Source: a virus (taxonomy: Duplodnaviria > Caudoviricetes). Taken from it: DNA of 64,000 nucleotides. Made by a program: the position numbers and the translations under genes. Positions 16,900 to 55,262 of the stretch are shown here, piece after piece; positions within the stretch are counted from its first letter, which is position 1, and every line of letters starts with the position of its first letter. The notes under the pieces were generated by a model, which worked only from the letters and a program-made list of their open reading frames with translations, was not told the DNA's origin and did no database searches. The stretch covers positions 26,006 to 90,005 of IMG/VR virus record IMGVR_UViG_3300043391_000675; one strand, written 5' to 3'.

Positions 16900-17381
16900 T
16901 ATTCTGCTTTCCATACTGGTACAAAATTTCCTTCATTGGTCTTAGTATACAATATAGTGTTGTGTTTGAGAAGAGCTCTCATCTCATTCTTTGATGGCAT
17001 ATCCTTAGAGTATCCTGATTCTAATATAAACTCATGTATGTCCATAATGTCCGATTCACTATACATAAACTTATACCAAGTACTATCTGGATTACCTATT
17101 GGATATACTTTCTGAGGATATCTTATCTTCCCGTCCAAAATATAATCTTCTATGGTGACCTTATGCTTACCAAGCATTTGAGCTACTTGACTAGTTGAAT
17201 ATGCATTCTCCATAGTTTTTAAAACTTGTGAATAGGAATAAAGCAATCTTTTTTTATCTGGATAGCACCAAGCAACCATTTGGTCTTTAGATCTTGAATG
17301 ACTTAATACTTTATGTATCTTGTTATTTAAGAAGAAATACCGAATGCTTTTAACTGAATTTTTTCTCTTTTTTCTAACCAT
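16899..17381 (-). CDS. MerR/excisionase-like HTH protein
   Basis: YSTSQVAQMLGKHKVTIEDYILDGKI...YSESDI. Confidence 0.65.
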   Translation of the reverse strand: MVRKKRKNSVKSIRYFFLNNKIHKVLSHSRSKDQMVAWCYPDKKRLLYSYSQVLKTMENAYSTSQVAQMLGKHKVTIEDYILDGKIRYPQKVYPIGNPDSTWYKFMYSESDIMDIHEFILESGYSKDMPSKNEMRALLKHNTILYTKTNEGNFVPVWKAE

Positions 17382-19799: not shown

Positions 19800-22700
19800 T
19801 TAGTACCCCCGAAATGTTGGAGGGAAGAACGGTGTTGCAAATGTAGGTGGGAAGAACGGTGGGAAGAACGGTGGGAAGAACGGTGGGAAGAACGGACCGC
19901 CCTTAAAGCTTGGGAAGAACGGTGGGAAGAATGGGAAGAACGGTGGGAAGAATGGGAAGAACGGTGGGAAGAATGGGAAGAACGGTGGGAAGAACGGTGG
20001 GAAGAATGGAGATTCAAAGAACGGTGGGAAGAACGGTGGGAAGAACGGTGGGAAGAACGGTGGGAAGAACGGACCGCCCTTAAAGCTTGGGAAGAATGGC
20101 CCAACTACACATGCCTGAGTTTCTGAAGTTACGCATGGGTTTCCAGAAGGACATGTTCTTGTTCTTGATTGAGAAGAGTTTACACAAGTACTCCATGCTG
20201 ACCAAGCGGTGCAACCAGCTGCTTGTGTTGCATCGCAATTGCAAGGTGTTCCGCATGCTGGATATCCAGATGTGCTGCAGGAAGTTGAATATCCAGATCC
20301 GCTACCACTAATGTTAGAGGCTTCAATTGATTGTGAGCAACCAGCGCAGTTAAAGTTAACACTTGTTGTACAGTACCATGTACTGCATGCTTCAGTTTCA
20401 GATGTTGTACAAACATTTCCTGAAGGACAAGTTCTAGTTCTAGTTCGTGTGCCACCAGAACAAGCGCTCCAGGCAGACCATGCCCCACACTGACTTGCAA
20501 CGCAAACACAAGGTGTTCCGCATGCTGGATATCCAGATGTGCTGCAAGCGGTTGAGTAGCCAGATCCGCTGCCGCTTATGTTGCTACTTTCAATTGATTG
20601 TGAACAGCCAGCACAGTTGGAGTTAACGCTTGTTGTACAGTACCATGTACTACAAGTTTCAGTTTCAGATGTTGTACATGGTGATCCTGATGGGCAAGTT
20701 CGTGTTCTAGTTCTTAGTCCTCCAGAACAAGCGCTCCAAAAGCTCCAAGACCCACAAGCGTTGCTTGCAGTGGCATCACAAACGCAAGGCGTCTGGCATG
20801 CTGGATATCCAGATGTGCTGCAAGCGGTTGAGTAGCCAGATCCGCTGCCGCTAATATTACTTCCTTCAATTGAATACCCACAACCATAACAGTTAGCTGG
20901 CGTACTTGTTGTGCAATACCAACACTGTTGTGATTCTGAAGTTGAGCATGGAGATCCAGAAGGGCAGACTCTTGTTCGAGTTCTGTATCCTCCAGAACAA
21001 GCACTCCAAGCAGACCAAGCTCCGCAAGCACTATTCTGTGTCGAATCACAAACGCAAGGAGTAGCACAAGCGTAGTAAGATCCATTTTGATTACATGCCG
21101 TTGAGTAGCCAGATCCACCACCGCTTATGTTACTGGACTGAATGGTGTAAGAACAGCCAGCACAGTTTGAGTTAAGGCTTGTTGTACAATACCAGCACTG
21201 CTCTGTCTGTGTTGTTACGCAGGGGTTACCAGCAGGGCAAGTTCTAGTTCTTGTTCTTGTATGGCTTGCAGAACAAGCACTCCATTCACCCCACGCACCG
21301 CATGCGCTTTCTGCAGATGCACTGCAAACACAAGGTGTAGCGCATTCGTAGTAAGTTCCAGTTTGGTTGCATGCCGTTGAGTAGCCAGATCCACCACCGC
21401 TTATGTTACTGGACTGAATGGTGTAAGAACAGCCAGCACAGTTTGAGTTAAGGCTTGTTGTACAGTACCAGCACTGCTCTGTCTGTGTTGTTACGCAAGG
21501 GTTGCCAGCGGGACAAATTCTTGTACGGGTTCTTGTGTGGCTTGCAGAACAAGCACTCCACTCACCCCAAGTACCACATGCGCTTTCTGCAGATGCACTG
21601 CAAACGCAAGGGGTAGCGCAAACTGGATATGCTATTGAACTGCATGCTGTTGAATATCCAGACCCACTACCGCTTATGTTAGTTGATTCTATTGTTTGGC
21701 TACAACCAGCACAATTAAAATTAACGCTTGTTGTACAGTACCAGCAATTTTCAGTTAATACATCGTCACTTTCAACTATAGTACAATCTAACATATTTTC
21801 AATCTTAGTTCTAGTTTTTGTTCTAGTTCCATTAGAACATTCAGAATATGGTCCGTACTCAGTATATGTAGTAGATACGCAACATGATGGAGTAGTATAA
21901 CATGCAATGGAGTAGCCAGATCCAGTTGCACTTACATTTGTTGGTGACTCAAAAGTACTGCAAGATATTGGTGTCGATTGAACATAAGAAACACAATACC
22001 ATGTACCTGTTGTTTCACAAATTGGAGCCGATACTTCATAGTCATAAGAAAATGCAGTTAAATCTATATCATTAATTTTTGAAGTTGTTACAGTTACACA
22101 GGACGGTTGATCTGATTCTATGTCTGTAACGAATATTGTATTTCCAGTTCTAGAAGCATTTCCATTTGTGCAGCTTAGCTCTATATCAAATGAGCTGATG
22201 TCTGAGTAGTTTAATATTGTAACTTTAAAAGAAGTGGCGGTAGCGTCAAATGCTCTTGATAGCATAGCCTGAATACCCCAATTAAGAACTCTAATGCTTT
22301 CTGTAACAGTATTACTTTCTTTTAGCGGTATAGATGTTCCGCCTAATGCAGTAACAGATACATTATACAAAGCATTCTCAGTAAGTCCAGTAACTACTGC
22401 AGATGAATCTGTAGTAGTTACTGGGTATCCAGGTATAGAAATACCTGTTTGATTTCTTTTTATATCTACACGATATTGTGTTGCATTTGTAGAAAGCCAA
22501 TCTACAGAAAATGATGTTCTTGTTCTATTAGAAAATGTAATAGTTGGATCTTCAATAACTCCTGGCTGCCAGTCTATAAACGCAAGCTCTTGAGTTGGAC
22601 CAATTTCAGAATATCTTACACCAGTAAATTCTCTATAATAATCATCAGCTATGATTGACAGCTCCCACTGATAGCTATCATTAGGGTCTAAACTATTTGG

Positions 22701-23516
22701 CAAATTGATTGTTACTGAAGTGTCAGTGAGCAATACTGGTTCTGGCACATAAAGCTTTTGAACACCTGCACTATCATATAAGCTTATTATCTGTGACCAC
22801 ATATATGTCGGAACCTGAGCGGGTGTTATTGTTGCTGGATCGTATGCCCAAGATAGGGTTACAGATGTCTGAGTTTCATCTGTAATATCAAATGATGATA
22901 TGTTAAACCAGTATCTGGCTGCAATTCCTAGGCCTGGAAAATTAACATCAGCTTCCCCACTACTATTTTCAGCTTTTATTTTGCCTCTAAATTTTACTTT
23001 ATTAAGCACATTTGCTTTTGTTATTAATGGCCTGTTAGATGCGCTCACTGGGACTTGATATAGATAATCTGCATCTGAATAATCATCATATTGTTTAACT
23101 ACAGGTGTTATTAAATCTGTCCATGTAGAATATGGAGGATCTGATTTTTGTATATACATAGTAAATTTTGTAGGCTCTTCATTCCATTGGCCTCTTACTA
23201 AATACATTTTGTCCCCATTAAAAGGAGAATCTATTGATTCAAATCCGTCAGAGCTAATAAATGTAAGTGATGGTGGATTTGCTGTTTCAGCATTAGGCAC
23301 ATTAGTTCCAAATATTTTAAACCAAAGTCCTGACGTTCCTAGTTGCCAAACACTTTTTACTCTTAGCCAGCCATCAATAACCCATGGGTTAGAGCTTAAT
23401 CCAGAGTTTATTGTGTCTGAAACAGAAGCTTTTCTCCAGATGCTTCGAATCTTTACCCATCCGTTTATATTATGAGCACCAGTATCGGTTGCGCTAGTTT
23501 TTCTCCAGATGCTCAT
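19800..23516 (-). CDS. Large putative virion appendage: W-rich N-terminus, FN3-like domains, seven Cys-rich thrombospondin-1-like repeats, C-terminal (PPFF)n-FRGY
   Basis: FN3-like FSVDW...VTGLTENALYNVSVTA; repeats WYCTT...GYSTAC...CGxWxxWSACS..RTRTRTC; Pro/Phe tail. Confidence 0.85.
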   Translation of the reverse strand: MSIWRKTSATDTGAHNINGWVKIRSIWRKASVSDTINSGLSSNPWVIDGWLRVKSVWQLGTSGLWFKIFGTNVPNAETANPPSLTFISSDGFESIDSPFNGDKMYLVRGQWNEEPTKFTMYIQKSDPPYSTWTDLITPVVKQYDDYSDADYLYQVPVSASNRPLITKANVLNKVKFRGKIKAENSSGEADVNFPGLGIAARYWFNISSFDITDETQTSVTLSWAYDPATITPAQVPTYMWSQIISLYDSAGVQKLYVPEPVLLTDTSVTINLPNSLDPNDSYQWELSIIADDYYREFTGVRYSEIGPTQELAFIDWQPGVIEDPTITFSNRTRTSFSVDWLSTNATQYRVDIKRNQTGISIPGYPVTTTDSSAVVTGLTENALYNVSVTALGGTSIPLKESNTVTESIRVLNWGIQAMLSRAFDATATSFKVTILNYSDISSFDIELSCTNGNASRTGNTIFVTDIESDQPSCVTVTTSKINDIDLTAFSYDYEVSAPICETTGTWYCVSYVQSTPISCSTFESPTNVSATGSGYSIACYTTPSCCVSTTYTEYGPYSECSNGTRTKTRTKIENMLDCTIVESDDVLTENCWYCTTSVNFNCAGCSQTIESTNISGSGSGYSTACSSIAYPVCATPCVCSASAESACGTWGEWSACSASHTRTRTRICPAGNPCVTTQTEQCWYCTTSLNSNCAGCSYTIQSSNISGGGSGYSTACNQTGTYYECATPCVCSASAESACGAWGEWSACSASHTRTRTRTCPAGNPCVTTQTEQCWYCTTSLNSNCAGCSYTIQSSNISGGGSGYSTACNQNGSYYACATPCVCDSTQNSACGAWSAWSACSGGYRTRTRVCPSGSPCSTSESQQCWYCTTSTPANCYGCGYSIEGSNISGSGSGYSTACSTSGYPACQTPCVCDATASNACGSWSFWSACSGGLRTRTRTCPSGSPCTTSETETCSTWYCTTSVNSNCAGCSQSIESSNISGSGSGYSTACSTSGYPACGTPCVCVASQCGAWSAWSACSGGTRTRTRTCPSGNVCTTSETEACSTWYCTTSVNFNCAGCSQSIEASNISGSGSGYSTSCSTSGYPACGTPCNCDATQAAGCTAWSAWSTCVNSSQSRTRTCPSGNPCVTSETQACVVGPFFPSFKGGPFFPPFFPPFFPPFFPPFFESPFFPPFFPPFFPFFPPFFPFFPPFFPFFPPFFPSFKGGPFFPPFFPPFFPPFFPPTFATPFFPPTFRGY
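19803..20099 (-). repeat. In-frame 12-nt/9-nt tandem repeat encoding PPFF/PFF (array 1)
   Basis: Units CCACCGTTCTTC and CCATTCTTC; internal duplication of PSFKGGPFFPPFF. Confidence 0.95.
20109..22004 (-). repeat. Seven ~90-aa Cys-rich modules (one degenerate), each with a TSR-like WxxWxxC...RxRxC half
   Basis: Direct alignment of the units in the translation; about 12 Cys per unit. Confidence 0.9.
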
Positions 23517-27897: not shown

Positions 27898-30800
27898 TTA
27901 GATCGCTCTACACGAAACTGTGGTAGTTACCCCTTCCGAATACTCTAATGAGCACCTTGTTATTATGTATTTATCGCTGGTTTCTGTCATTCCCAGAATG
28001 GGATAATTTATAGTAACAATATCTCCAGCGGAAAGAATTGGGTTTCCAAAAACTGTCATGTCTATGAACTTTCCTTTATTTAAGCTATTAGATTTAATCC
28101 ATTCAGCCAAGGCTTTTGCATCTTCTTGTGTTTGAATCCATGAAGAGTCAAATACAACAGACTCTTTATTTTCTGAATCCGTGGACTGATCTGTATCATA
28201 ATCTATTGCTCCAGAACGCTGAATCTTGTTTCCAAGGATGTATAGGCTGGTGTAATTATTATCGTGAAGAACTACTGAAGTAGATGTATTATTTAATAAA
28301 TAGGCTTCGGCAGAAAATGGCTGTAGTCTTTGGTCTAATACTGTTACAAATTTATTGTTTGCGGTTCTAACCTGAATTGGAACTGCAGGCCTATCCTGAT
28401 AAGATTCTTTCACTTTTCTTATTTCTCTTCCGATAGTACCAAATTCATATAGAGATCCTGATTGATCTGCAACATCCTTGCCGTTATTATATATTAAATC
28501 TCCGTACAGCATTGATAAAGTGTCATCTGCGTACAAACCATTATACTGGTAAGCCTTGCTTGAATTTTTTGTTTTATAAGTTGGCTCATCAATGCTCTTG
28601 GCATATACGAATTCAAAGTAAGCAATGCCCTGGCCGCAATGTAGGCCTATGTTTTTTGTAATAGAAGTTGGAGGAATATAATCATTTACAGAATCAGATC
28701 CTGAATCAACTGCTGTTATCTTATACCCATTTATAAAAGCAGTAATAGTATTTTTAAATGTACCCCCAGATACAGATTCCCTTTTAACAAGGACGTCGAC
28801 TGAGTATGAGCTTCCTGCATATATACCAGACATTGTTTTTGTAGATGTCTGCTGGCTATCTTTTAAAACAGTTAGCTTATTGTTTAAAACTTTTACAATC
28901 ATAATATCTTTTTGCAAGCCAGCGAACGCAGTAGTACGAATTAGAATATAATATCCGTTTTTACCAGTTGAATCAAGACAGAATCCGATGCCGCCGACTT
29001 GTTCTGGGCTTACATCTTGACTGTCAAAAAACATTCTTGTTCCGCAAGACATGTATGAATCAGATGTATTAATTGAATTAAATGGCTTTACTACAATATC
29101 AAAAGTCTTCTTATCTTTGTCTAAGTTAGATACCGTAAGAAAGCTTTTTGATACAGTTTCTCCTGAAGTTCTTGCTGGAGAAGTTACTGATCCAACTCCT
29201 GGGACTAGCTTAGCAACATCAGGTGTGGCTAGCGTAATATTGTATTTGTTAAATTTATTTGAATCTGTTTCTCCAGCACCATTAACATAGGATCCCAAAG
29301 TTTTTTTGTGTATGGACTTAGAGGTAGATAAGGCACCCCTTGTTTTAATATTATATTCTCCTGTTGGGTAGAAATTTTTATATCCTGGTTTTTTCAAAGC
29401 CTCGTACTTCCATATATCCGATTGGCTTTTAATCAAAACGGGAATAGGCACACTGCCTCCTGCTGGAACGTATTGATACCATAAGCCATCATACTCAATA
29501 ATTTCTCCGTTAATCATAACATAACCGCTGAATGCATCAAGTACCTTGTCTGGTCTTGCTGAGTTTATTGTGTTTGGGCTTAGCTGAAATACTGTAGTGT
29601 CATCATTAATATCTGTAGATAGTGATCCAGCTCCAAGAAATGAATCTTCAGAGGTCCAAAGTGGTGAACTTGAAGTGCTGTTTGCTGCAACAAATGCTGT
29701 AGCGTATCTTACTCTAACCTGGTTTGCAGAAAATATTTCTCTCGAAGACAGTTTTATTATGTTAGGAGCATACGTAACTGTTTGCCCAGTTTTAATTTCT
29801 TCGCTTGTAAATGTCCAAGATGGAGTTGCAGATTTGTCATAGATTAAATTTCTGCTATAAAAATTTAACACATTGTTTTCATCAACAAATGCGTTCATCT
29901 GAATATCTCTACACAATTCTTGCAATACATCCCATACGGTTTTATCTCCATCAGACCACCAATAAGATAAAGATGGAATTGAATTGTCATCAATAACACC
30001 ATTTGTTCTTTTAACATTAATCTTGTAGTTAGAGAATCCAACAGAGTCTAGAACTCTTTTTATAATTGCTGTTATTGGTGAATCTTGAACTAGTAACTGT
30101 GGACATAAAGTATCTTGCAATATCTTAGCTGCATCTGTTGCCTCAACAGAAGCATCTCCAAATTCAGATATGGACCATGAGTTAACATAGAAAGTTCCTT
30201 GCACAGTTTTTTGTGAGGATGTTCCATCTCCAATGTTAACATGAGGCTTAATAACTGCATTCTTAAATAGATATATCTTTGTGTTATCTATAGTATTCTT
30301 TACATTGTATTCAACAATGGATCTTGAAGTTGTATGTGGCTTCATTAATGACATGCTTAAATAGTTTGCTGTAATTATTCCAACTGGAACAATTGATCCG
30401 TCATCTGCTGATGTTTCTTTGTTAATAATAAAGCTTACTATGTCTGAATCAATTGGAAGAACCCATCTTGGGCTAAATTCAATTACACCAATTAACTTGC
30501 CCGTATTTGAATTAACTGCAGTTAAAGATATCTTCTTTAGATACTGAGTTGTAGTATATGTAGTAGGTTCTGTTGTTGACCAAGTAGTTCCATTGTAATA
30601 TATTACTGCTTCCCCGCTTGAATTAAGCGTAGTGCCAGAGGCAGTTATTGTTGTGTTATCCTGCTTAACTCCGCTTATTGTCCAGGAGGTGGGTGTGTCG
30701 TGGCTAGTTTCAAACCTAGCAATGATCTTGTTGGCAGGAACTAACTTTGCTACAGTCTTTGCTTCATCTGAAAAGTATTCTAGTGAAAGGTTTATATTTG

Positions 30801-31167
30801 TATTCTTAGGGGCAAGCCAATATTTGTACACCATATCTGGTCCAGGATAATACAGTCTAGGCTTTGTTCCAAGAGATATGTCGCGGGGTGGTTCAAAAGA
30901 GTTTACAGGTGTATCTGTATTATTAGTTGTATTAATTAAATACTTAATACCTGGGGCTAATGGTCTAAATGGTTTATATATTGTATCTATTGGGAATAGC
31001 TTCTTAAAAGCATTTGAATAAGCATGGACTATATTTTCTGGAATAGTTGTTGGCTTTATATATTCAACCATAGAATTTAGGTTATATTCCATTACGGCAC
31101 CAGCCGAAGTTGAAATAGAATATCCCTTTTTAAGTAAATCTTTAGTTGCGTCTGATACCGTTATCAT
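27898..31167 (-). CDS. Large minor tail (hub/baseplate) protein
   Basis: 1089 aa downstream of tape measure and Dit-like genes; hub-like WDVLQELCRD...FVDENNVLNFY and C-terminal WIQ...GNP.L..GD.V. Confidence 0.75.
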   Translation of the reverse strand: MITVSDATKDLLKKGYSISTSAGAVMEYNLNSMVEYIKPTTIPENIVHAYSNAFKKLFPIDTIYKPFRPLAPGIKYLINTTNNTDTPVNSFEPPRDISLGTKPRLYYPGPDMVYKYWLAPKNTNINLSLEYFSDEAKTVAKLVPANKIIARFETSHDTPTSWTISGVKQDNTTITASGTTLNSSGEAVIYYNGTTWSTTEPTTYTTTQYLKKISLTAVNSNTGKLIGVIEFSPRWVLPIDSDIVSFIINKETSADDGSIVPVGIITANYLSMSLMKPHTTSRSIVEYNVKNTIDNTKIYLFKNAVIKPHVNIGDGTSSQKTVQGTFYVNSWSISEFGDASVEATDAAKILQDTLCPQLLVQDSPITAIIKRVLDSVGFSNYKINVKRTNGVIDDNSIPSLSYWWSDGDKTVWDVLQELCRDIQMNAFVDENNVLNFYSRNLIYDKSATPSWTFTSEEIKTGQTVTYAPNIIKLSSREIFSANQVRVRYATAFVAANSTSSSPLWTSEDSFLGAGSLSTDINDDTTVFQLSPNTINSARPDKVLDAFSGYVMINGEIIEYDGLWYQYVPAGGSVPIPVLIKSQSDIWKYEALKKPGYKNFYPTGEYNIKTRGALSTSKSIHKKTLGSYVNGAGETDSNKFNKYNITLATPDVAKLVPGVGSVTSPARTSGETVSKSFLTVSNLDKDKKTFDIVVKPFNSINTSDSYMSCGTRMFFDSQDVSPEQVGGIGFCLDSTGKNGYYILIRTTAFAGLQKDIMIVKVLNNKLTVLKDSQQTSTKTMSGIYAGSSYSVDVLVKRESVSGGTFKNTITAFINGYKITAVDSGSDSVNDYIPPTSITKNIGLHCGQGIAYFEFVYAKSIDEPTYKTKNSSKAYQYNGLYADDTLSMLYGDLIYNNGKDVADQSGSLYEFGTIGREIRKVKESYQDRPAVPIQVRTANNKFVTVLDQRLQPFSAEAYLLNNTSTSVVLHDNNYTSLYILGNKIQRSGAIDYDTDQSTDSENKESVVFDSSWIQTQEDAKALAEWIKSNSLNKGKFIDMTVFGNPILSAGDIVTINYPILGMTETSDKYIITRCSLEYSEGVTTTVSCRAI

Positions 31168-31757
31168 ACCTGCTCCAGGGATATATTAACACTCCAGAAG
31201 GGCTGTAAGCCTCTTTTAACGACAGTAAAATCACATGATGTAAACATTACAGTGTATGTGTAATCATCGGCTAAAGCCCCGCCTGACTCCTCTATTAACT
31301 CTGTAGAAAAGACTGTAGGGTTTAGTTTAATACGAAATGCTCCACGGCCTGCAGCGCTTTCGTAAAAGGCTTTTAAGTCTTCTGCGCCCCAGCCACCATC
31401 GACTGTTTCGTTTCTAAAAGACGGAACCATTTCCCAAGATGCGGATACATTTAATTTATCTGCAATAAAATATTTTCTTAATGTTCCATTTGACATTCTT
31501 TGGCCAGATTCAATTCTTTCAACATTTAATGAAAGAGGTGCTCTATTATGCTCAGTAACTCTTCTAAATTTTGTTGCAGTTGTTTTATTACTATACGCCA
31601 GCCCATTTCTATTTGCAGTTGTAGCGTCATATGTATTTCCTGGTGCAGTAATAGTTGTACCTTTATAATCAAATTGATTATTAGCTGGATCAATTGCAAA
31701 TGGGTCTAATGCTTCTATATATAGGATTGATCCTTTTGATAAGTTTTGGAAACTCAT
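31164..31757 (-). CDS. Distal tail (Dit-like) protein
   Basis: Directly after tape measure; RMSNGTLRKYFIADK...W.VNISLEQV. Confidence 0.65.
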   Translation of the reverse strand: MSFQNLSKGSILYIEALDPFAIDPANNQFDYKGTTITAPGNTYDATTANRNGLAYSNKTTATKFRRVTEHNRAPLSLNVERIESGQRMSNGTLRKYFIADKLNVSASWEMVPSFRNETVDGGWGAEDLKAFYESAAGRGAFRIKLNPTVFSTELIEESGGALADDYTYTVMFTSCDFTVVKRGLQPFWSVNISLEQV

Positions 31758-34700
31758 GGTCTACCAACCTTTCTATTTACTCCAGCAGCCATTTCTCTAA
31801 GTCTCATTTCTTTATGAATTGAAGCGGCAACATCATCTGCTGTAAGATTGGTTCCACTTAAAGATACATTTATATTATACAATGAGCTTGAAGAGGAAGC
31901 AAGACCGCCTTCGTTAAATTTTACCCTGCCACCGCTTGACATCTTTGGAACATTATAACTAACCATTCCGCCAGAAGCCATTTTATTAATATTGTCTAAC
32001 ATAGGTACGCCAGCTGCTTGGACTGCTTTTGCACTAATTACGTATTCACCATTTGAAAGCATAGCTGGAATTGAATCAGATGTTGCACTGCCAGGACCTG
32101 ATATATATCCTCCATAAGCTTTTTTAATTCTCTTTCCCATTGTTTTTGTTTTTTCGTCCCATGGACGGATATCAACACCATTGTTATCACTTACATAGGT
32201 TTGTCCATTATATTTAAACTTGTACCATGTCTGATCGTTTATGCTAACCATTGTTCCTTGGCCTTTAGAATAAGCTGATTTGAATCCATCAAATACAGTT
32301 TTGCCAGTTCCTGTTTGAGCTTTATCTGGGCCGAACTCTACAGTTCCTTTAGGAGGTGTGCCTGGGGCTTTTCCAAGTGCTACCAAAAGATCGGCACGAA
32401 GCTTAGCCAAGGTTACTCCTCCAGTAATTGAAGTTGCTAGTTTTTCTACGGCAGCTAAGTCTTTTTGGAATACATCAAGTGCTCCTCCGCTAATTCCAGT
32501 TGAAAATACTGGCTTTCCTTTTGCATCAAATCCAGTTGGAGATCCAGTTGGCGCTGTTACTGCAATAGGCTTTCCAGTCTTTGGATCGAAGTACCCACCG
32601 AATGCATCCCGAACTGTTTTTGCAGATAGTCCAGATCCAGATCCAGATTTTTGAATCTCTTTTACTAATGCTATTAACTCTGCAGTAATTTTTGCTTGCT
32701 CTGCGGCCTTTTCTTTTTCAGGAAGTAGTCTTGAGCTTATTGCTCTAGTGCTTAAATCATTGTATCTTGTTTGGAATCCAGTAATGGTTGTGTTTATTTC
32801 ACCTGCAAGGGCTGCATTGTCCTGTTGTCCTTGAAGCGCTAAAGCTTTCTTATCTGATTTATTTTGTATAGACTCAGCATCTTTTTCCAAAGGAGCCTTT
32901 GCTTTGTTAGCTGCATCTTCAATTGCTTTTGAAGCAAGCTCGCTCTGTCTATTTGAAGTTAGCTGATCAATATCTATTCTTGCTCTTGCAGCTGTTGCCA
33001 TATCTCCACGAGCAACTGCATCAGCATATTCTATTTGAAGTTTTTGCAACTCTAATGCATAGTTTGATGCATCTTGAGTTGCTCTTAAAGATTCTAGCTT
33101 TTTGTTTTTTTCTTCTTCAATAAGTTTAATCTTTTTAGCAATTGCTTTTAGCTCTTCTTGTGCACTTCTTTGTGAAGCTGCAGCTGCTCTTTGAGAAGCA
33201 GCAGAATTTGCATTAATTGTCTTTTGCAATTTAGCCAAGGCTGCGCCTGTTTGTCCATATGTTGTAGCGCTGTCAGCAGCTTTAGTTAAATCCGAAATTC
33301 CAGTTCCTATTGCAGATGTAAATCCAGCTAATTTATTTGCTAATGTAGAATCAATCTTGCTTAAATCAATATTAATTCCAGATGTAAACAGCTTCCACTT
33401 GGCGAGTATGCCTTTAATTGTATCTGAAGAGTTTGTTATTGATGCAAGTAACGGCTGAGTCTTTTGAAGATTTTCATATGCATTTCTTCCAATTTCTTCA
33501 TTCATCTTTGGATTATTTGCTTCTGATTTTGACATAACTAATTGATAAGCTTCATACTCATCAATTACATTACCCAACTCATCTTTAGTTCCCACCAAAG
33601 CCGACGTTGCGTTTGAGAAAACATTTATTAATCCTTCAAATCCATTTCCAACTTCTTTGCCCCAGTCTGCAGTTCCTGCGCCACTGTTTAAAGTATTGAC
33701 TAAGTTTCCAACTGCAAACTCTGCAGCAGATGACTTGTCTACAATTGATCCAAACTGTACATCGGCTAAAACTTTGTAAGCCTGTGAAGCTTTTTTACTA
33801 TTTGCTAAAGCTCCATATATTTTTTTGTTTGCTTCTTCAATGCTCATTCCTCCAGCAACCATTTGTGCCTTTTGATTATTAAGCAATCTTTGCGTTTCTT
33901 CAGTACTGCCCGATCTATTTATAGACTCAATTAAATCCTTGAGTCCCTTACCTTCTTCTTTAGCTTTCTTCATGTCTTCTATAGATTGAGGTATACCAGG
34001 AATACCAATTGAATTGTTTGCAGATCCTTTAGCTGCTGCGCTCACTAGCTTTTGCTTATCTAAGTAGCCCTGCATTGTTTCTTTAAGATTAAAGTATTTT
34101 ATACCAGCTTGCTCTGCAGCTTTTGCTGTCATAGAAAGACCCATTGAAGCGTCTTGCTTTGCATCTTGATAGTCTTTATATACTTTAAATGCTAATCCAG
34201 CGGCTGTGATCGCTGCACCAACAAGCCCAAATGCTTTTGCAAATCTTAACACTTGTGCGCCCATTGCGGCTAGCTTTGCTGTTGCTCCAGTGACTCCTGT
34301 AATTCCAGCTTTAGCTGAGGCTGCTCCAGTTTTTATTGAACCAAACATTCTAGCATAAGGAATTGGCATTGAAAGAAGAGAAGATCCTATCATCAACCCC
34401 ATACCTGCTTGCATTCCAGACATGCTGCCAACTTTTTCCTGGTTCATTAAAGCCATTCCGCCCATTGACCCAGCCATACCAATTCCCATTTGAGCACCCA
34501 TGCCCATGCCGCCAGCTCTTTGTGGAACTCTTATGCCTTCTTTTTTTGCTTGTGCCGCAGTCATAGAGTTTCCGTTTACAAGGTATTCGGTTTTTCTCAT
34601 TCCCAGAGTTCCTACTTTTCTAGTCTGAACTCCATCTCCTGCATCTCTATACTGACCAATCATTCCTGGCCCAAATAGTCCTTGTGCTGGTGCTTGTCCT

Positions 34701-37700
34701 ACAGGATAATTCCTTGCGGCAAATGCGTTTTGCTCTCTAATAATTGCATTCTGTGCTCTATTGGCAAATTTTGTAATTGAGCTTTGAGCACTTTTTCCAA
34801 AATTTACAATCATTTCAGAAGATTTCTTATAACCATTTCCAACTTTATTAGCTGCTGCAAGCAGTTCAAGATTTAATCTTATAGATCCTTTTATTACAGA
34901 AGATGATACAGACGAGAATGCTGCTGATAGATATTGAGCTTTCATTGCTGCCGAATTTTTAAATGGGTCCATCATGTTGTTAACCATTACTTGTCCAGGA
35001 TTATAGAAGCTTGTTGTTCCAGTTCTTACCGCCTGTCTTCCTAGTCCGCTTGTTAATGCTTGCTGGCCAGTAATTTGTCTAGATGAAGCTCTAGATCTTT
35101 CTGCTGCAGCATCTCTTTCTGCCTGCTCACGTCGTTTAGCTTCCCACGCAGCTCTAGCTGCTGGGTTTCCTGGTCTCTGTGCACCTTTCTTTGCTCCATA
35201 AGCGCTTCTGCCTTTTTTAACTGGCCCACCACCAACTGGTCCTCCATCATTAAGGTATGTTGGGTTAGAGTGTACGGAATGATATTTACTCCAATCAACC
35301 TCTATTCCATCATCCAACCTTTTGAGCATTGCTTGATAAGGTGGTCTAAGATCTACAGGTAGATCATTTATTATTTTTACCAATTTTGGACGAGCATCTT
35401 CTAGAACCTTTTTCATCTTTCGACCATATTTTTTAGGGCTCATTTTAGCAATTATTGGGGCAGTATCACGTGCAAAATCTTTTCTTGCTCCACCTTTAAC
35501 AGCAAGAAGATTGATCATTGCTTGTTTTTCCATAGAGTTCATTTCATCAGCTTTTGCAAGTGATGTGTTGCCAGATGCTGCTTTAAACACTCCAGCATTT
35601 CCAACATCTGGATTAAAGTTTCCATATACGTTTGATCTAGATAGATCTTTATTATTCATAAGAAGAGAGTTAGCAAGCTGTCTAATTATTGTGTCTTCTT
35701 CCCATGGCACATTAGTGTTTGCAAAGCGTGGGTCATAATCTGATTCTAGTGCAAGCAGCTTGCTTTTCTTTGATGGGTCTAATGGGTTGACAACTGTTCT
35801 AGCTGTTTGAACTGGAGATGATATTCCAAAAAGGTCTCTTGAAATTTGTGTGCCAATTGGCTCATGAACTGCAGTTAATTCATTAGGAACTCCTTTAACA
35901 AAAACCTTTTTCTTACCAACCTTATATAATCCAGATACACCAGGTACAGGATAACTCATTCCTGTACTTGCAGAAATTTGATGTCCATATTCAGTTACTG
36001 GTGTATCAGCAAACTTTCCTAGCGAGCTTCTTGAGCTTAATTCTCTTGCTTTTGCTAAAATCTTTAGTTGTTTTTCTGCAGGTAATAGTTTTAATAAAGG
36101 AGAAACGTTTCCATAATTTGATCTGCCTTTAGATATAGATCCTCCTGGAATCATTCCACCCATATTAAATGATCCAGCAAGTGCACCTAGTTTTGGTCTT
36201 GCATAAGAATTTCCCATTGCGAATAATCTTCCGCCAAGTGTTGTGATCATTTTAGAGTTAAAGCCCGATGCAGATTTCATTCTCGTCAAGGTAAGTTGTC
36301 TAATAATTTCCTTCATTGTTGTGGGGCCCGTAATTCCCAACTTAGCTTTAAGTTTTTTAATTCCTGCTATAAAGTTGCTCTTTGCTTCATCCTGAAATGG
36401 TGAAACTTCATCTAGAAAAACACCATCTGTACTTTGCTGTAACCAGTTGCCCATCTCGTTAAATGATTTCGCAAGCCCAGTAGATTGACCAACAAAATTA
36501 TTTGATCTGACTCCAGTAACATCAGCAAATTTGGCTGCTTCTGCTCTTGACATTCCTTCTTCAACAAGCAGGGCTTGCAACTCTCCTGGCTTAAATATTG
36601 AAGCAGATCTTTTTGCAGTCATAGTGTGAGATTTAGAAACTGGATCGGGTCCATCTGATACTCCGCCTAAAATTCCAAAAACTTTTTTTGCTTGAGCTGT
36701 AGTTAAAACTCCCTCTTTTATTAAATCGTCAATTACAGATTTCATTGCTCCTGTATATGTCTGAGGAGCTATAGCTTTCATACGAGCTGCTTTTGCACTT
36801 TGATCGTATTTATTTTTACTTGAATATTCATCTAGAATTAAGTTTGCACCTGGGAACTCTTTGCTTAATCTAATAAGTTGAGCTGTTCTTGCCTTTACAA
36901 ACTCTTCTGTTTTTCTTGTCCCATTTTTATTTGCTGCTTTTTTAGCATGCTCTGTTGCTGAATCATAATCTGCAGAAACTCTCTTTGTGGCATCTTTAAT
37001 ATCCATTCCAGTAAGCTGTGATAATATGGCAGCATCAGAAGCGACTGTTGCTGCTCTAATTACCTTTGGATAATCTTTAGAATTAACTAATCTTGCCCAT
37101 ATGGATAGATTGCTTTCTCTTCCATACCCATATGTACCTCTCATTATCTGACCACCAAAACTGTATCCATTATTAGCCGCATCGACTGCTGCATAAAGCT
37201 CGGGCATTCTTTGAATTTTTGGACCAAACACTGTTTCCTGTGGAGTTAATGCTGCTGTAATCTTTCCGCCGTTTTCATATGTAGCAGAAGCCATAGCAAC
37301 AAGTGGTGCGTTTTCTGGATCTAAAGATGCACCCTGGTTTAATACATATCCCCCAACAGGTACACTTCCAAGCCTATCGTCGTAGTTAATTGAAGACGGA
37401 CCAGAAACTGTTGTTCTACTTGGCCCGAACTCTTCAATTCCTCCACCATCTGCAAACTTAGGAATTCTTGTTGCCTGTATACTGTAAGGTGCTCCGAATG
37501 TTCTTACTCCACGAACTCTTCCAAACTCTTCCATTACAGCAGCGTTTGCTTTCTTTTTGTAAAGATCTCTTAAAGTAAATTGTCCGTTGGCATCTACAAC
37601 TGGTTGGTTCATCATAGGAGCTTTTGTTAAATCTATAGATCTTCCTTTACTAGCTGCGTACATGCTGACAGCGGACCCCATGTCTGCTTCTATCTGTGCA

Positions 37701-40150
37701 TTAAGTGCAAGTATTCTTGCCTTTGCTTGCTCAACAGTTATCTCTGCGCTTCTCATTTGCTGTACTATTAATGCAGATTGCTCAGCTGCGCTATTTGCAA
37801 ACCTTTGTGTTATAGGAAGTATGTCATCGAAGGTGTCTAGTAATTCTCTGCTTACTGTTCCGCCCATTGCAATTGTTTTCTTAAGCATTGCAACTTCTTG
37901 TTCTGTTTGCATACCAAGCGTGGCCATTAATGCGTGGAATTTTGCTGCTTCCCCTGAAACAATTCCTGTAGATATATTCTTTACGCTTGTTAGTCCTTCA
38001 ACATTTGGAAGCCTATCATGCATATACATCTGAGGAGTTCTTGATATTCCTCTGTTAACTGGGATAGCTCCTGGTACCCCACCAAATATTGTTGCAGGAT
38101 TATTTGGATCTCTTGGTCTAATGTGAGACATTGCTCTAGTGTTAGCATCTCCAACATATGGATCGTTCGGATCTACGACTCTTCTTCCAGCAGCCATAAC
38201 TGTGCGGCCATCAACAGTGCTAATTCCTCCATTAACTGGAACTGCACTCTTCATAGATGCTGTCTGAAGGCTTTGATAATCTAAAACAAGTTTTTGTAAT
38301 GCATTGTGAAGAACTTGAGCTGCTGCAGCATCTGAATAAAATGCATTTTCAACCATTTCAGCAGCTTTTTGAGCGGCAATAATTTCTGGCGTGAGCATCT
38401 TCCAGCCATTTGCTTTCATAAAGAATGCTCTTAGCTGAACAACACCCTTAGTAATATAGCCAAAGAAGTTTGCAAGCAAACCAGTTAACATAATAAGCGG
38501 TCCAACGATTGCAGTAAATCCAGCTAAAAATGTAAGTGCTTTTTTAATTGGTGCTGGAAGCCTTGTAAAGAAATCTAATATTTTTGATCCTGCTTCAATA
38601 AGCTTAGTAGCAACTCCAAGGAACTCCTCGCCAACATCTGCTAGCTCTGCTTTAAGTCCTTCAATTGCTCTTTTGTATTTACCAGAGGCAGATTCTGTAA
38701 CCATTTTTAATTCTCGGCTAGCTACATCTGCTAATTCTCCAGTTGTTGCTTTCATTAAATTTAAAACTTGAAGCGTCTGGCTTCCTTCTTTTCCTAAGTT
38801 ATTAAGCAATGCGCTCATTCTTGCAAACTGGAACTTTCCAAACATCTGCTCCATCGCTCTTGCTTTGCTCAATGGATCAAGTGCATCTAATGCTTTTTGC
38901 AAATCCATAAGTAGACCAGTTGTATCTCCAGTATTTTTTGCTACCATACCCATTACATCGATACCAAAATCTGACATCATTCCTACAGTTTGTTTTGTTG
39001 GGTTAATAAGAGATGCAAGACCAGACTTTAAGGCGTTGGCGCCTTCTGATGCGCTGATTCCACCCTCTCTCATTGCAGTTAAATAAAGAGCTAAATCTTG
39101 AACGCTACCACCAAGCTGTTGAACTACTGGTCCAGCTTTTGGAATTGCTTCCACAAGGTCGTTAAGAGTTGTTGATGTCTGGTTTTCAACTGCGTTAAGA
39201 AAGTTAATAGACTCCGTTAGCTCTTCAGTATTTTGTTTAAAAGCTGTTTGAATTGATAGTGTTGCTTTCATTGCATCTTGTCTGTCAACTTCACCAAGGA
39301 TTGCTAGTCTTGTTGTTTCTGCAATTGAGCCTAGCAACTCATTGCCAGTTTGTCCTGTAGCCGCAATATCTGCACCAAGTGCAATTGTATCTTTAAAAGA
39401 TGCACCCATTGTTTTGGATAATGTTTTTGCAGTCTGAATAACTTCTTCTCTAATTGCTTTTAAGTCTGCAGCAGATGTGGCAGCTAATCCACCATAAACC
39501 TTTGTTAATCTTACTAGCTCTGTATCTGCTTCTCTAAATGCTTTGCTTGCTGCCGCTCCAAACATCGTAATAGGAACTGTAAGACCTACTGTAAGCTGTC
39601 TACCTGCCCACTGAGTATTCTTACCAAAGTTAATTAAAGAGCCTGCTCCTTCGGACAATGCACGATTCATAATCTGCATTTCCATTCGAGCTAACTTTCC
39701 TTTATTTGCTATTGCATCCAGACCTCTAGGAATCATAACGTTGTACTGCATTAAGCCCTGAGCATTTCTGCCTAGCGGTTGCAGTACTGAATTTTGAAGC
39801 ATTACCTGTTCTTTGGCAAGCTCTCTGATCATACCCTTTTGGGTAGTAGCGTGTTCTCTAAATGTTGAGAAGTAGTTCTTAAGCTTTAATCTACCAGCGT
39901 CTAAGTTTTTACCAAACTTGTCTACATCTGAATTAAGGTTTACGAAGTGGCTAGAGAACTGTCCGCTGCTAGTTAATGTATCTCTAAATAAATTATTTGC
40001 TAATTTTGTTGAAGAAGAAATTGCTTTGTTTGAAGCAAGTAACTCTCTTTGCAGTTGCTGAAGACTAGCACTAGCCCTGTGTACTTCAGACACAAGGCTA
40101 GACAAGTCGGCTTTGGCGACTATACTGGTTACAATTTGTTCGTCAGCCAC
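31754..40150 (-). CDS. Tape measure protein with embedded cargo domains
   Basis: 2798 aa, Ala/Gly-rich helical; N-terminal TMP domain (FREADTELVRLTKVYG); C-terminal GPGSATSDSIPAMLSNGEYVI; follows tail chaperones. Confidence 0.93.
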   Translation of the reverse strand: MADEQIVTSIVAKADLSSLVSEVHRASASLQQLQRELLASNKAISSSTKLANNLFRDTLTSSGQFSSHFVNLNSDVDKFGKNLDAGRLKLKNYFSTFREHATTQKGMIRELAKEQVMLQNSVLQPLGRNAQGLMQYNVMIPRGLDAIANKGKLARMEMQIMNRALSEGAGSLINFGKNTQWAGRQLTVGLTVPITMFGAAASKAFREADTELVRLTKVYGGLAATSAADLKAIREEVIQTAKTLSKTMGASFKDTIALGADIAATGQTGNELLGSIAETTRLAILGEVDRQDAMKATLSIQTAFKQNTEELTESINFLNAVENQTSTTLNDLVEAIPKAGPVVQQLGGSVQDLALYLTAMREGGISASEGANALKSGLASLINPTKQTVGMMSDFGIDVMGMVAKNTGDTTGLLMDLQKALDALDPLSKARAMEQMFGKFQFARMSALLNNLGKEGSQTLQVLNLMKATTGELADVASRELKMVTESASGKYKRAIEGLKAELADVGEEFLGVATKLIEAGSKILDFFTRLPAPIKKALTFLAGFTAIVGPLIMLTGLLANFFGYITKGVVQLRAFFMKANGWKMLTPEIIAAQKAAEMVENAFYSDAAAAQVLHNALQKLVLDYQSLQTASMKSAVPVNGGISTVDGRTVMAAGRRVVDPNDPYVGDANTRAMSHIRPRDPNNPATIFGGVPGAIPVNRGISRTPQMYMHDRLPNVEGLTSVKNISTGIVSGEAAKFHALMATLGMQTEQEVAMLKKTIAMGGTVSRELLDTFDDILPITQRFANSAAEQSALIVQQMRSAEITVEQAKARILALNAQIEADMGSAVSMYAASKGRSIDLTKAPMMNQPVVDANGQFTLRDLYKKKANAAVMEEFGRVRGVRTFGAPYSIQATRIPKFADGGGIEEFGPSRTTVSGPSSINYDDRLGSVPVGGYVLNQGASLDPENAPLVAMASATYENGGKITAALTPQETVFGPKIQRMPELYAAVDAANNGYSFGGQIMRGTYGYGRESNLSIWARLVNSKDYPKVIRAATVASDAAILSQLTGMDIKDATKRVSADYDSATEHAKKAANKNGTRKTEEFVKARTAQLIRLSKEFPGANLILDEYSSKNKYDQSAKAARMKAIAPQTYTGAMKSVIDDLIKEGVLTTAQAKKVFGILGGVSDGPDPVSKSHTMTAKRSASIFKPGELQALLVEEGMSRAEAAKFADVTGVRSNNFVGQSTGLAKSFNEMGNWLQQSTDGVFLDEVSPFQDEAKSNFIAGIKKLKAKLGITGPTTMKEIIRQLTLTRMKSASGFNSKMITTLGGRLFAMGNSYARPKLGALAGSFNMGGMIPGGSISKGRSNYGNVSPLLKLLPAEKQLKILAKARELSSRSSLGKFADTPVTEYGHQISASTGMSYPVPGVSGLYKVGKKKVFVKGVPNELTAVHEPIGTQISRDLFGISSPVQTARTVVNPLDPSKKSKLLALESDYDPRFANTNVPWEEDTIIRQLANSLLMNNKDLSRSNVYGNFNPDVGNAGVFKAASGNTSLAKADEMNSMEKQAMINLLAVKGGARKDFARDTAPIIAKMSPKKYGRKMKKVLEDARPKLVKIINDLPVDLRPPYQAMLKRLDDGIEVDWSKYHSVHSNPTYLNDGGPVGGGPVKKGRSAYGAKKGAQRPGNPAARAAWEAKRREQAERDAAAERSRASSRQITGQQALTSGLGRQAVRTGTTSFYNPGQVMVNNMMDPFKNSAAMKAQYLSAAFSSVSSSVIKGSIRLNLELLAAANKVGNGYKKSSEMIVNFGKSAQSSITKFANRAQNAIIREQNAFAARNYPVGQAPAQGLFGPGMIGQYRDAGDGVQTRKVGTLGMRKTEYLVNGNSMTAAQAKKEGIRVPQRAGGMGMGAQMGIGMAGSMGGMALMNQEKVGSMSGMQAGMGLMIGSSLLSMPIPYARMFGSIKTGAASAKAGITGVTGATAKLAAMGAQVLRFAKAFGLVGAAITAAGLAFKVYKDYQDAKQDASMGLSMTAKAAEQAGIKYFNLKETMQGYLDKQKLVSAAAKGSANNSIGIPGIPQSIEDMKKAKEEGKGLKDLIESINRSGSTEETQRLLNNQKAQMVAGGMSIEEANKKIYGALANSKKASQAYKVLADVQFGSIVDKSSAAEFAVGNLVNTLNSGAGTADWGKEVGNGFEGLINVFSNATSALVGTKDELGNVIDEYEAYQLVMSKSEANNPKMNEEIGRNAYENLQKTQPLLASITNSSDTIKGILAKWKLFTSGINIDLSKIDSTLANKLAGFTSAIGTGISDLTKAADSATTYGQTGAALAKLQKTINANSAASQRAAAASQRSAQEELKAIAKKIKLIEEEKNKKLESLRATQDASNYALELQKLQIEYADAVARGDMATAARARIDIDQLTSNRQSELASKAIEDAANKAKAPLEKDAESIQNKSDKKALALQGQQDNAALAGEINTTITGFQTRYNDLSTRAISSRLLPEKEKAAEQAKITAELIALVKEIQKSGSGSGLSAKTVRDAFGGYFDPKTGKPIAVTAPTGSPTGFDAKGKPVFSTGISGGALDVFQKDLAAVEKLATSITGGVTLAKLRADLLVALGKAPGTPPKGTVEFGPDKAQTGTGKTVFDGFKSAYSKGQGTMVSINDQTWYKFKYNGQTYVSDNNGVDIRPWDEKTKTMGKRIKKAYGGYISGPGSATSDSIPAMLSNGEYVISAKAVQAAGVPMLDNINKMASGGMVSYNVPKMSSGGRVKFNEGGLASSSSSLYNINVSLSGTNLTADDVAASIHKEMRLREMAAGVNRKVGRP

Positions 40151-40925: not shown

Positions 40926-41687
40926 TTAAACTGCTAGAACACGGTCAATAATCTTTCCATATTCTGAACCAACGTGAGCTGCGTCACCTGATGGTAGAAG
41001 ACGGAATGTTACTGGGAATGTTGTTGCTGCTGTACGAGCCAAAGAGAACTGTGACTGCTCAACAGACAAAACACGACGTGCATAATATACACGCTCAGTT
41101 GCTGATGCCTCTGATGTTGGAGCCTGTCCAACTGCAATTAGCTGACGCTCTGTTGGAGCTGCACCAAGTGCACCTGCTTCCAAACCTAGTGTGTCAACTG
41201 CGGTTGCGCCAGTTCCTGTTGATGTAAGTGTATCGGCTTTTTGACCAAATACTGCAAGAACGTTCTCTAGAGTACCTTCTGCCATTTCTGTTGAAATTTG
41301 AACCTGCATAGCAGACTTGAACAGTTTAGCTGTATCTAGCAACTGGTCAACAGTTACTGAATCGTATGTTGGTTGGTAGCTGATCTGAAGACCGTTATTT
41401 GTAAAACCAACGTTACGGTAAGCTCCACCAATTGCTGGTGATGCCTCTGTAGGTGATGCTGTTTGAGTAGCACCTGTTGTTGTTAAAACTTTGTTTAGTG
41501 TTGTAGTATAAGACTCTCCTGATGAGAATGCTGGTACAAAACGATTCTTTGATGCAACGAAAGCATTTGCTGCGCCTGCGTCCATGCTTGAATCATAACC
41601 AGAAACTGTTGAATCTTCTACTGACAAAAATAGTGGTGATGCGCCAACAAGAATATTCTTAGCGTCACCTGTATTTTGATATGCCAT
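40926..41687 (-). CDS. Major tail protein
   Basis: KNILVGASPLF, YRNVGFTNNGLQISYQPT, VDQLLD; flanked by promoter and terminator; likely start 41687 after AGGAGG. Confidence 0.88.
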   Translation of the reverse strand: MAYQNTGDAKNILVGASPLFLSVEDSTVSGYDSSMDAGAANAFVASKNRFVPAFSSGESYTTTLNKVLTTTGATQTASPTEASPAIGGAYRNVGFTNNGLQISYQPTYDSVTVDQLLDTAKLFKSAMQVQISTEMAEGTLENVLAVFGQKADTLTSTGTGATAVDTLGLEAGALGAAPTERQLIAVGQAPTSEASATERVYYARRVLSVEQSQFSLARTAATTFPVTFRLLPSGDAAHVGSEYGKIIDRVLAV

Positions 41688-41760
41688 AATTGTATTGCCT
41701 CCTGATTTCATGAAATTGATATATATATATTTGGCTGGCTAGGCCCTTTCCTCTGTTCTA

Positions 41761-51844: not shown

Positions 51845-52444
51845 TTATGTCCACGCCATCTTAAATTTTTCTCTAAAATCCAAATACGGTATAGCGTATG
51901 GATCTACCCACCAATCTTCATGCCACTCTCTAACAACTAGCTTATAACCAAATGAAGAAAGAATTTCTCTTTGCGCCTCACGCATTCCCTTATTGTTATA
52001 TTCAATTTGAGAGTCATGTTCAAAAGTAATTACAGAAAACCTATACTTGCTTAAAGGAATAGCAAGTAGTCCGTGTAAAGTTAAGTAGGGATTCCCCACA
52101 GAGTTTCCTTCTGGGGTATACCCAGCATCTATGTCAACCTGCAAGTAGTCTATTTGTTTTGGAAAATTATTGTCTTCAAAATAGGAAAGATAATTAAAAT
52201 GTGTTGCGTCTCCCAAAATGCATGGGTTTTTTCTATTTGAAACGAACTCTGCGTGTCTTTCTGGGTCTATTTCAAATGAAACACCGTTCCACTTATAATC
52301 TGTTTCTAGATGATAGGTGTTGCTTCCTTTTTTAGAATCAAATGCGCCTAGCTCTACGTAGTAACCATTTTCTTTATTTTTAAGTAAATCCAGCACAAAT
52401 TTTTCTTGTCCACTATTTCCCTTATACTCCATGATATTCTCCAA
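51845..52444 (-). CDS. FkbM-like SAM-dependent methyltransferase
   Basis: YYVELGAFDSKKGSNTY, IDYLQVDID, ITFEHD; ATG at 52432 may be the true start. Confidence 0.75.
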   Translation of the reverse strand: MENIMEYKGNSGQEKFVLDLLKNKENGYYVELGAFDSKKGSNTYHLETDYKWNGVSFEIDPERHAEFVSNRKNPCILGDATHFNYLSYFEDNNFPKQIDYLQVDIDAGYTPEGNSVGNPYLTLHGLLAIPLSKYRFSVITFEHDSQIEYNNKGMREAQREILSSFGYKLVVREWHEDWWVDPYAIPYLDFREKFKMAWT

Positions 52445-53015: not shown

Positions 53016-53020
53016 CTACA

Positions 53021-55250: not shown

Positions 55251-55262
55251 TTTTCTATTATA

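Follow-up and report, generated by a model that had tools for sequence, protein, structure and literature searches.

The window analysed here comprises 64,000 nucleotides (positions 26,006 to 90,005) of the virus record IMGVR_UViG_3300043391_000675, an IMG/VR contig of 90 kb with an estimated completeness of 83%. It encodes a tape measure protein (TMP) that carries, at amino acids (aa) ~1350-1634, a segment which according to structural modelling has a protein kinase-like (PKL) fold. Modelling, sequence comparison and analogy lead us to favour, at a little better than an even chance, the view that this module is a true PKL catalytic domain, probably an active phosphotransferase, and that it forms a cargo cassette of the TMP that is delivered into the host at entry.

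A kinase-like module within the tape measure protein

The TMP and the elements that delimit the module are located in the window as follows:

31754-40150, minus strand: TMP open reading frame (ORF), one uninterrupted frame of 2,798 aa with a GTG start
36161-37153, minus strand: second globular TMP module, aa 1000-1330, adjoining the kinase-like module upstream (confident AlphaFold2 model)
36110-36169, minus strand: N-side linker FNMGG-MIPGG-SISKGRSNYG, aa 1328-1347 (from the sequence), disordered in the AlphaFold2 model
35249-36103, minus strand: folded kinase-like domain, aa 1350-1634 (AlphaFold2 model; the ordered residues are approximate)
35195-35257, minus strand: C-side linker YLNDGG-PVGGG-PVKKGRSAYG, aa 1632-1652, right-hand boundary of the cassette (from the sequence and the alignment to the relative P0282)

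A preliminary description of this DNA had pointed out four kinase-like motifs, and all of them are present in the single TMP frame at the places it gave: GVSGLYKVGKKKVFVK (aa 1404-1419, window 35894-35941), VHEPIG (aa 1428-1433), SLLMNNKDLSRSNV (aa 1495-1508, window 35627-35668) and PDVGNAG (aa 1514-1520, window 35591-35611). The range it had assigned to the domain, 35260-36150, corresponds to aa 1334-1631 and is nearly coextensive with the modelled folded module, of which aa ~1382-1626 align to solved kinases. Its picture of an otherwise Ala/Gly helical TMP was incorrect, since at least one further confidently folded globular module is found at aa 1000-1330.

Both flanks of the kinase-like module carry the same repeated linker, (F/Y)xxGG-x3-GG-x3-KGRSxYG, and a weak DNA repeat is seen at the linkers. 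(F/Y)xxGG motifs also occur at TMP aa 899-1001 and 2678-2749. The motif GE(F/Y)V(I/F)...N..GG occurs repeatedly in the TMP, and tape measures of Gordonia and Mycobacterium phages match it as well. The (F/Y)xxGG motifs and the KGRSxYG linkers could be recombination joints or processing sites.

The predicted fold of the module

The segment aa 1331-1638 was modelled by AlphaFold2 from an alignment of 43 sequences with 25-97% identity to the query. The model has a mean pLDDT of 86.7 and a pTM of 0.84, and disorder is limited to the Gly-rich ends. The elements of the AlphaFold2 model are given below; adding 1330 to a model residue gives the TMP residue.

Model residues 61-64: strand beta1
Between beta1 and beta2: Gly-rich loop
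Model residues 77-81: strand beta2
Model residues 84-90: strand beta3, holding K89 (K1419)
Model residues 94-111: helix C, holding E100 (E1430)
Model residues 119-124 and 134-141: strands beta4 and beta5
Model residues 155-167: helix E
After helix E: catalytic loop with D172 and N177 (D1502 and N1507)
D185-V-G: metal-binding motif (D1515-V-G1517)
Model residues 210-298: helical C-lobe

This order of secondary structures in the model, beta1-beta2-beta3-helix-beta4-beta5 followed by helices, is that of a canonical kinase.

The model was compared by VIA-align with 48,161 PDB representatives in a search of the whole PDB, and a second list was obtained by re-aligning the best 1,000 chains of Foldseek. 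Both lists consist of kinase folds throughout their 50 listed entries. In the PDB search CotH reached Z 11.1 (212 residues, rmsd 4.0), followed by MavQ (9.9), CtkA (9.5), PI4KIIa (9.5), Fam20C (8.9), ATM (8.7), actin-fragmin kinase (8.3), Vps34 (8.1) and HipA (8.0). Among the re-aligned Foldseek chains the values were 11.5 for CotH, 10.9 for CtkA, 9.5 for PI4KII, 9.1 for LepB, 8.8 for HipT and 8.4 for HipA. The alignment to CotH is thus stable across both lists (Z 11.1-11.5, 211-212 residues, rmsd 3.8-4.0).

VIA-align itself warns that Z values of 7-8 are a common background. We nevertheless consider the fold match to lie above this background, because the lists are pure, because the alignments extend over ~210 of the ~255 core residues of the module, and because the neighbouring module (aa 1000-1330), an internal control modelled in the same way and with similar confidence, did not exceed Z 3.4. 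Every listed match of a Foldseek search against the PDB was kinase-like as well, with weak E-values. The assignment of a kinase fold is based on the VIA-align Z-scores, the purity of the lists and the conservation of the motifs described below. The kinase fold of an atypical clade that had been proposed for this segment is therefore borne out by the model and by the composition of the lists.

Conservation of the catalytic residues

Conservation was counted over 150 representatives of 50%-identity clusters, which reach down to 27% identity to the query and were aligned to the profile of the 43-sequence alignment. The catalytic positions are:

35924-35941, minus strand: Gly-rich loop G1404-V-S-G1407-L-Y1409 between beta1 and beta2, consensus GxGGxY
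35894-35896, minus strand: K1419, the beta3 lysine (VFVK), in 137/137 representatives
35861-35863, minus strand: E1430, the helix-C glutamate, in 141/141 representatives
35630-35653, minus strand: catalytic loop N1500-K-D1502-L-S-R-S-N1507, consensus D-K-D-L-x-x-x-N
35600-35608, minus strand: D1515-V-G1517, DFG-equivalent metal-binding motif, D in 146/147 and G in 142/147 representatives

Within the Gly-rich loop G1407 is invariant (137/137), and Y1409 (133/137) and G1404 (112/137) are less strictly kept. The catalytic loop shows D1502 in 147/148, L1503 in 143/147 and N1507 in 146/147 representatives, while position 1500 is D in 141 representatives and N in 7. The family consensus can be written as GxGGxY ... 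VFVK ... E ... DKDLxxxN ... DVG. The lysine, the glutamate, D-x4-N and DxG follow each other in kinase order, and in the model each of them is located on the expected element of secondary structure. The catalytic roles that had been assigned to the Lys, Glu, Asp and Asn residues agree with this near-invariant set, which is positioned as the secondary structure of a kinase requires. A chance set of motifs can be rejected in view of the near-invariance in 150 representatives and the kinase-like order and spacing.

The module could in principle be a pseudokinase scaffold that binds nucleotides or proteins, or mere bulk of the TMP, or it could catalyse another reaction such as AMPylation or glutamylation, as SelO and SidJ do. 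PAN3, Fam20A and SidJ are indeed among the weaker fold matches. Pseudokinases usually lack at least one of the residues K, D, N and D, and all four are kept in at least 99% of the 137-148 representatives over wide divergence, which makes these possibilities very improbable. Since the whole residue set is retained down to 27% identity, we infer canonical phosphotransfer, and conservation and model together suggest that the module is most likely an active ATP-dependent phosphotransferase.

Relation to known kinase families

Sequence searches with the segment aa 1331-1638 gave no Pfam match at E<=10, no PHROG match and no PDB match (phmmer), and the 43-sequence profile matched only noise in the PDB. 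The HMMs of CotH (PF08757), HipA_2 (PF20613) and PI3_PI4 (PF00454) had no match in the whole phage record at E<=10. A Pfam scan of the 43 family members revealed no HipA-family match, and a single relative (1/43) showed a sub-threshold PI3_PI4_kinase match (E=0.008). When the family profile was aligned to E. coli HipA by hhalign, the probability was 0.3%. Protein-language-model neighbours were clusters with HipA_2, PI3_PI4_kinase and actin-fragmin kinase domains (scores 0.91-0.95), which we take as a lead only.

The catalytic loop of HipA is DxHxxN and that of PI3/4-kinases is DRHxxN; the loop of the module, KDLSRSN, has no His. Membership in the HipA families (HipA_C PF07804, HipA_2 PF20613) can be rejected on the basis of the missing HMM match, the hhalign result and the missing loop His. 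A HipA-like context is missing too: the module is part of the TMP ORF and its neighbours are tail genes, with no HipB/HipS partner and no HipA N-terminal domain. Membership among the PI3/PI4-kinases (PF00454) is rejected because neither the protein nor the genome matches the HMM and the DRHxxN loop is lacking. CotH (PF08757), for which no HMM match was found in the genome or in the module, is the nearest match by fold only. The HipA/PI4K clade named in the preliminary description consequently holds as the structural neighbourhood of the module and fails as a family membership. In the fold comparison HipA (Z 8.0-8.4) ranks below CotH, CtkA and PI4KII and is close to the VIA-align background.

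The best fold match, CotH of the Bacillus spore coat (PDB 5JD9/5JDA), shares with the module the bilobal build, the Lys, the Asp...Asn pair and the metal-binding Asp. Sequence identity is as low as 10-11%, and CotH is a free protein of the sporulating cell, whereas the phage module resides inside a virion protein. The secreted kinase CtkA of Helicobacter pylori, HipA/HipT, and the group of PI4KII, PI3K, MavQ and LepB resemble the module in fold (Z 8-10.9) and in the motif order Gly-rich loop, beta3 Lys, helix-C Glu, D-x4-N and DxG; several of these proteins are delivered effectors or toxins. Compared to HipA and the lipid kinases, the module lacks the catalytic-loop His, the HipB/HipS partner, the HipA N-domain and the helical domain of lipid kinases. 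Taken together, sequence comparisons and the model indicate that the module is a new sequence family inside the atypical branch of the kinase-like superfamily and is structurally nearest to CotH and CtkA.

Distribution and exchange of the module

A phmmer search of 1.84 billion cluster representatives yielded 158 matches, corresponding to 158 clusters at 50% identity. Among the 150 listed of these 158 matches, 126 have at least 1,500 aa, and the median length is 2,873 aa. The TMP N-terminus was recognisable in 112 of the 150 representatives, and most of the others are fragments that start inside or just before the module. A word-indexed search, in which candidates were limited to 1,538-4,897 aa, found 161 giant proteins with the module, and a scan of IMG/VR found it encoded at 336 loci. 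No clearly complete stand-alone module was seen among the 1.84 billion representatives; short matches were fragment-like, and a few were ambiguous, for example P0266 (652 aa). The kinase module of this distant member precedes a HAD-type phosphatase domain (Acid_phosphat_B, E=1.2e-6; PNK3P-like), which pairs a kinase with a phosphatase.

In cultured phages, represented by the 50,697 GenBank records of INPHARED, tblastn with the module and with a 41%-identical relative gave no match. With a 27%-identical relative as the query, the matches to tape measures of Gordonia and Mycobacterium phages came from the linker motif only, the kinase part being unmatched. Megablast of the TMP gene against the cultured phages also found nothing. 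Judged from these searches, the kinase-like family is essentially, or almost, confined to giant TMPs of uncultured phages.

Close relatives of the TMP demonstrate that the module can be lost and replaced. Six of the 120 top-ranking relatives of the N-terminal TMP region, 72-76% identical over that region, are without it. One relative without the module, P0282, has 168 aa in place of aa 1166-1626; from aa 1627 on, shortly ahead of the LNDGG linker, it can be aligned again. An essential structural part of the ruler can be excluded as the role of the module, given these close TMP relatives without it. In other relatives the module is present, and its identity does not follow that of the N-terminal region: P0098 shows 98% identity over the N-terminal region aa 150-860 versus 55% in the kinase module, and P0112 shows 92% versus 47%. 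The sequences further indicate that exchange of the upstream module (aa 1000-1330) is not tied to that of the kinase module. In the relative L004 the kinase module is 88% identical, and the upstream module is alignable over 100 residues only (27%), while in L078 the values are 47% for the kinase module and 69% for the upstream module. At other places in the TMP, further relatives have CHAP, LysM, OmpA-like or phage-lysozyme domains.

Two hydrophobic segments of the TMP enclose the module, the first being located upstream and the second downstream of it:

38450-38542, minus strand: hydrophobic segment 1, aa 537-567, a candidate membrane-inserting helix (Kyte-Doolittle hydropathy, window 19, maximum 2.06)
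34178-34243, minus strand: hydrophobic segment 2, aa 1970-1991, following a stretch rich in Gly and Met (hydropathy)

The sequence comparisons show the module as an exchangeable cargo cassette that is bracketed by Gly-rich (F/Y)xxGG...KGRSxYG linkers and placed between the two hydrophobic segments.

The tape measure protein and its gene neighbourhood

The identity of the TMP follows from its PhageMin_Tail core, the very long ORF, and its slot between tail tube and chaperone genes on one side and distal tail genes on the other. The ORF matches 12 PHROG tape-measure families (best E=1e-118); the version of the gene caller is shorter, with 2,779 aa versus 2,798 aa. Two small ORFs in chaperone position separate the TMP gene from the tail-tube-like gene, with the TMP gene lying downstream.

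38837-39436, minus strand: PF10145 PhageMin_Tail core of the TMP, aa 239-438 (Pfam E=2e-26)
40926-41711, minus strand: probable tail tube protein with an Ig-like domain (PHROG 2175; weak Pfam match to Phage_TTP_17, E=1.7e-4, under the curated cut-off)
31164-31757: ORF of 197 aa, downstream of the TMP gene
27898-31167, minus strand: minor tail protein of 1,089 aa, downstream of the TMP gene and the 197-aa ORF (PHROG 10359, E=6e-84)

The module at aa 1000-1330 was modelled with a pLDDT of 82.5 and a pTM of 0.85. It matched no known fold in the PDB (best Z 3.4) and, judged from the model, may represent a new fold. It had been modelled as a candidate regulator or inhibitor domain, and the search matched it to no fold.

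Probable host and possible substrates

The same record contains, outside the window, a gene of the WhiB family (record 16987-17160; E=2.9e-13, over the Pfam cut-off). WhiB proteins are markers of actinobacteria and their phages, and among 14 control genomes the family was matched in Corynebacterium only. Together with the linker match of a distant family member to TMPs of Gordonia and Mycobacterium phages, the WhiB gene suggests that the host is likely an actinobacterium. GC is 36-42%, so that the host presumably belongs to a low-GC freshwater actinobacterial lineage.

Actinobacteria make phosphatidylinositol, and a substrate of this kind has to be considered. The TMP-delivered module might phosphorylate, at the entry site, a membrane lipid or an envelope precursor, with phosphatidylinositol as a candidate, and thereby alter the membrane so that a channel can form or DNA can pass. 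The near folds include MavQ (Z 9.9), PI4KII (9.5), LepB (9.1) and Vps34/PI3K (8-9), one family member has the sub-threshold PI3_PI4_kinase match mentioned above, the module is flanked by the two hydrophobic segments, and the likely actinobacterial host would have phosphatidylinositol available. On the other hand, the catalytic loop KDLxxxN lacks the His of DRHxxN, the top matches CotH and CtkA are protein kinases, and fold neighbours at Z 8-11 are no guide to the substrate. We therefore consider a kinase for lipids or small molecules quite improbable.

A possible role of the module at entry

In siphophages the TMP fills the tail tube; when the phage docks, it leaves the tube and inserts itself into the envelope of the host, where it forms a conduit for the DNA. 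Some TMPs contain cell-wall hydrolase motifs. For delivery, topology and substrate of the kinase-like module we infer the following series of events. A few copies of the TMP would ride in the tail tube with the kinase module in an unfolded or extended state, as the tube is too narrow for ~30 kDa of folded protein. On docking of the tail the TMP would be expelled and inserted into the host membrane, and the module would refold on the cytoplasmic side, where ATP is present. The refolded module may then phosphorylate a host protein or lipid near the entry site, and this could help the DNA to enter, promote an early takeover or let the phage evade a defence.

The preliminary description had already suggested an injected kinase for host takeover or anti-defence. 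By analogy with the other cargo domains of TMPs, and given the cassette behaviour, this is a reasonable proposal. The TMP of mycobacteriophage TM4 reportedly carries peptidoglycan hydrolase motifs. These motifs and the CHAP, LysM and lysozyme domains resemble the kinase-like module in being embedded in a TMP, dispensable for tail building and exchanged. The known cargo differs in that it works on the wall outside the membrane and without ATP, whereas a kinase depends on ATP and would presumably have to reach the cytoplasm to find it.

Several points weigh against delivery of an active kinase. A folded domain of ~30 kDa exceeds the lumen of the tail tube, so that unfolding and refolding must be assumed, and the arrival of internal TMP segments in the cytoplasm is likewise an assumption. 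With few TMP copies per virion the delivered dose would be small. The top Z of ~11 is just moderately over the VIA-align background, Foldseek found no PDB match at E<=0.001 (best E=6.7e-3, TM 0.2-0.35), and the Pfam, PHROG and PDB sequence searches as well as hhalign against HipA link the module to no characterised kinase. Furthermore, the nearest folds include CotH and Fam20C, enzymes that modify structural or secreted proteins during assembly.

This last point fits a kinase that acts late in the producer cell, where it would phosphorylate structural proteins of the phage, perhaps the TMP itself, or host proteins around tail assembly, and would be carried in the virion only incidentally. Fam20C (Z 8.9) phosphorylates secreted proteins. 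CotH, with Z 11.1-11.5 the best fold, phosphorylates the coat structural proteins CotB and CotG in spore-coat assembly (PMC7821199). In the producer cell ATP is present and the TMP is abundant late, and neither refolding nor a membrane topology has to be assumed. However, close TMP relatives do without the module or have it exchanged, which is unexpected for a function in assembly, and the remaining cargo of this TMP family (CHAP, LysM, lysozyme) is active at entry. A kinase required late only could also be a free protein, yet no clearly complete stand-alone copy was seen among the 1.84 billion representatives. We regard action in the producer cell as unlikely, and favour a role at the entry stage because the module behaves as a cassette and occurs alongside cargo that is used during entry.

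Other phage kinases are proposed or known to modify host proteins, among them T7 gp0.7 and kinases of the polyvalent proteins, and the module would resemble them in this respect. The T7 gp0.7 kinase is made after entry and is absent from the virion. Polyvalent phage proteins are giant multidomain proteins with kinase domains that are thought to enter together with the DNA (PMC5512222). According to the published description, the entire C-terminal subdomain is missing from their kinases (PMC5512222), whereas our module keeps a helical C-lobe (model helices 210-298), a distinction drawn from that description only. The carrier differs as well, since the kinase-like module is part of a TMP and not of a head protein. 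In BFVD kinase-like folds are found in giant phage proteins fused to portal, MuF or ART domains, including proteins of Gordonia and Mycobacterium phages.

Other genes in the window

Several further features of the window were noted apart from the tail genes:

2-1888, minus strand: ORF of 629 aa running past the window end, strong haem peroxidase match (PF00141, E=2e-60), an unusual auxiliary gene for a phage
1926-1998 and 2357-2431, minus strand: tRNA-Arg(TCT) and tRNA-Met(CAT), respectively
9806-16282, minus strand: replication set of the phage, including a DnaG-type primase, a DnaB-like helicase and a DNA polymerase III alpha-like protein of 1,118 aa with PHP, NTPase and finger domains
19800-23516, minus strand: ORF of a 1,238-aa fn3-containing protein
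52422-58131, minus strand: tandem array of at least six diverged paralogues of 200-265 aa that are 22-36% identical
59270-62413, minus strand: protein of 1,047 aa with an Mtd N-terminal domain (PF18454, E=5e-16)

All four scanned genes of the tandem array (4/4) encode 2OG-Fe(II) oxygenases (PF13640). The region 20001-22000, inside the fn3-containing ORF, has a local GC of 0.46 compared to ~0.37 around it. The sign of the GC skew switches around 59270-62413, and the Mtd-domain protein encoded there is, from its sequence, a possible target of a diversity-generating retroelement.

Implications for siphophage tails

Literature searches combining TMP with kinase or CotH retrieved no description of a kinase domain in a TMP. 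What appears to be new, as far as sequence comparison can tell, is a kinase-like family in TMPs that lies outside Pfam and PHROG and has no match in the cultured phages searched. This is a sizeable family, with 336 IMG/VR loci and 158 clusters, that is currently invisible to annotation. Its modular build, bracketed by linkers, suggests a natural scaffold for the exchange of cargo. With the adjacent module aa 1000-1330 the TMP has a further cargo, one of no known fold.

For an ATP-dependent kinase to work from within a TMP, some portion of the tape measure would have to arrive in the cytoplasm capable of folding and of catalysis. If delivery at entry is true, this would be, to our knowledge and according to the literature searches, the first case of a bacteriophage delivering a kinase effector through its tail, and the siphophage tail would inject proteins in a manner comparable to that of contractile injection systems. 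In a wider sense, and here we see somewhat less than an even chance, the TMP of many uncultured actinobacterial siphophages may be a delivery platform for exchangeable enzymes, from which the kinase enters with the DNA and acts on a host protein or a lipid of the membrane within seconds of adsorption, before phage genes are expressed. Such a kinase would provide a pre-transcriptional route to host takeover or anti-defence.

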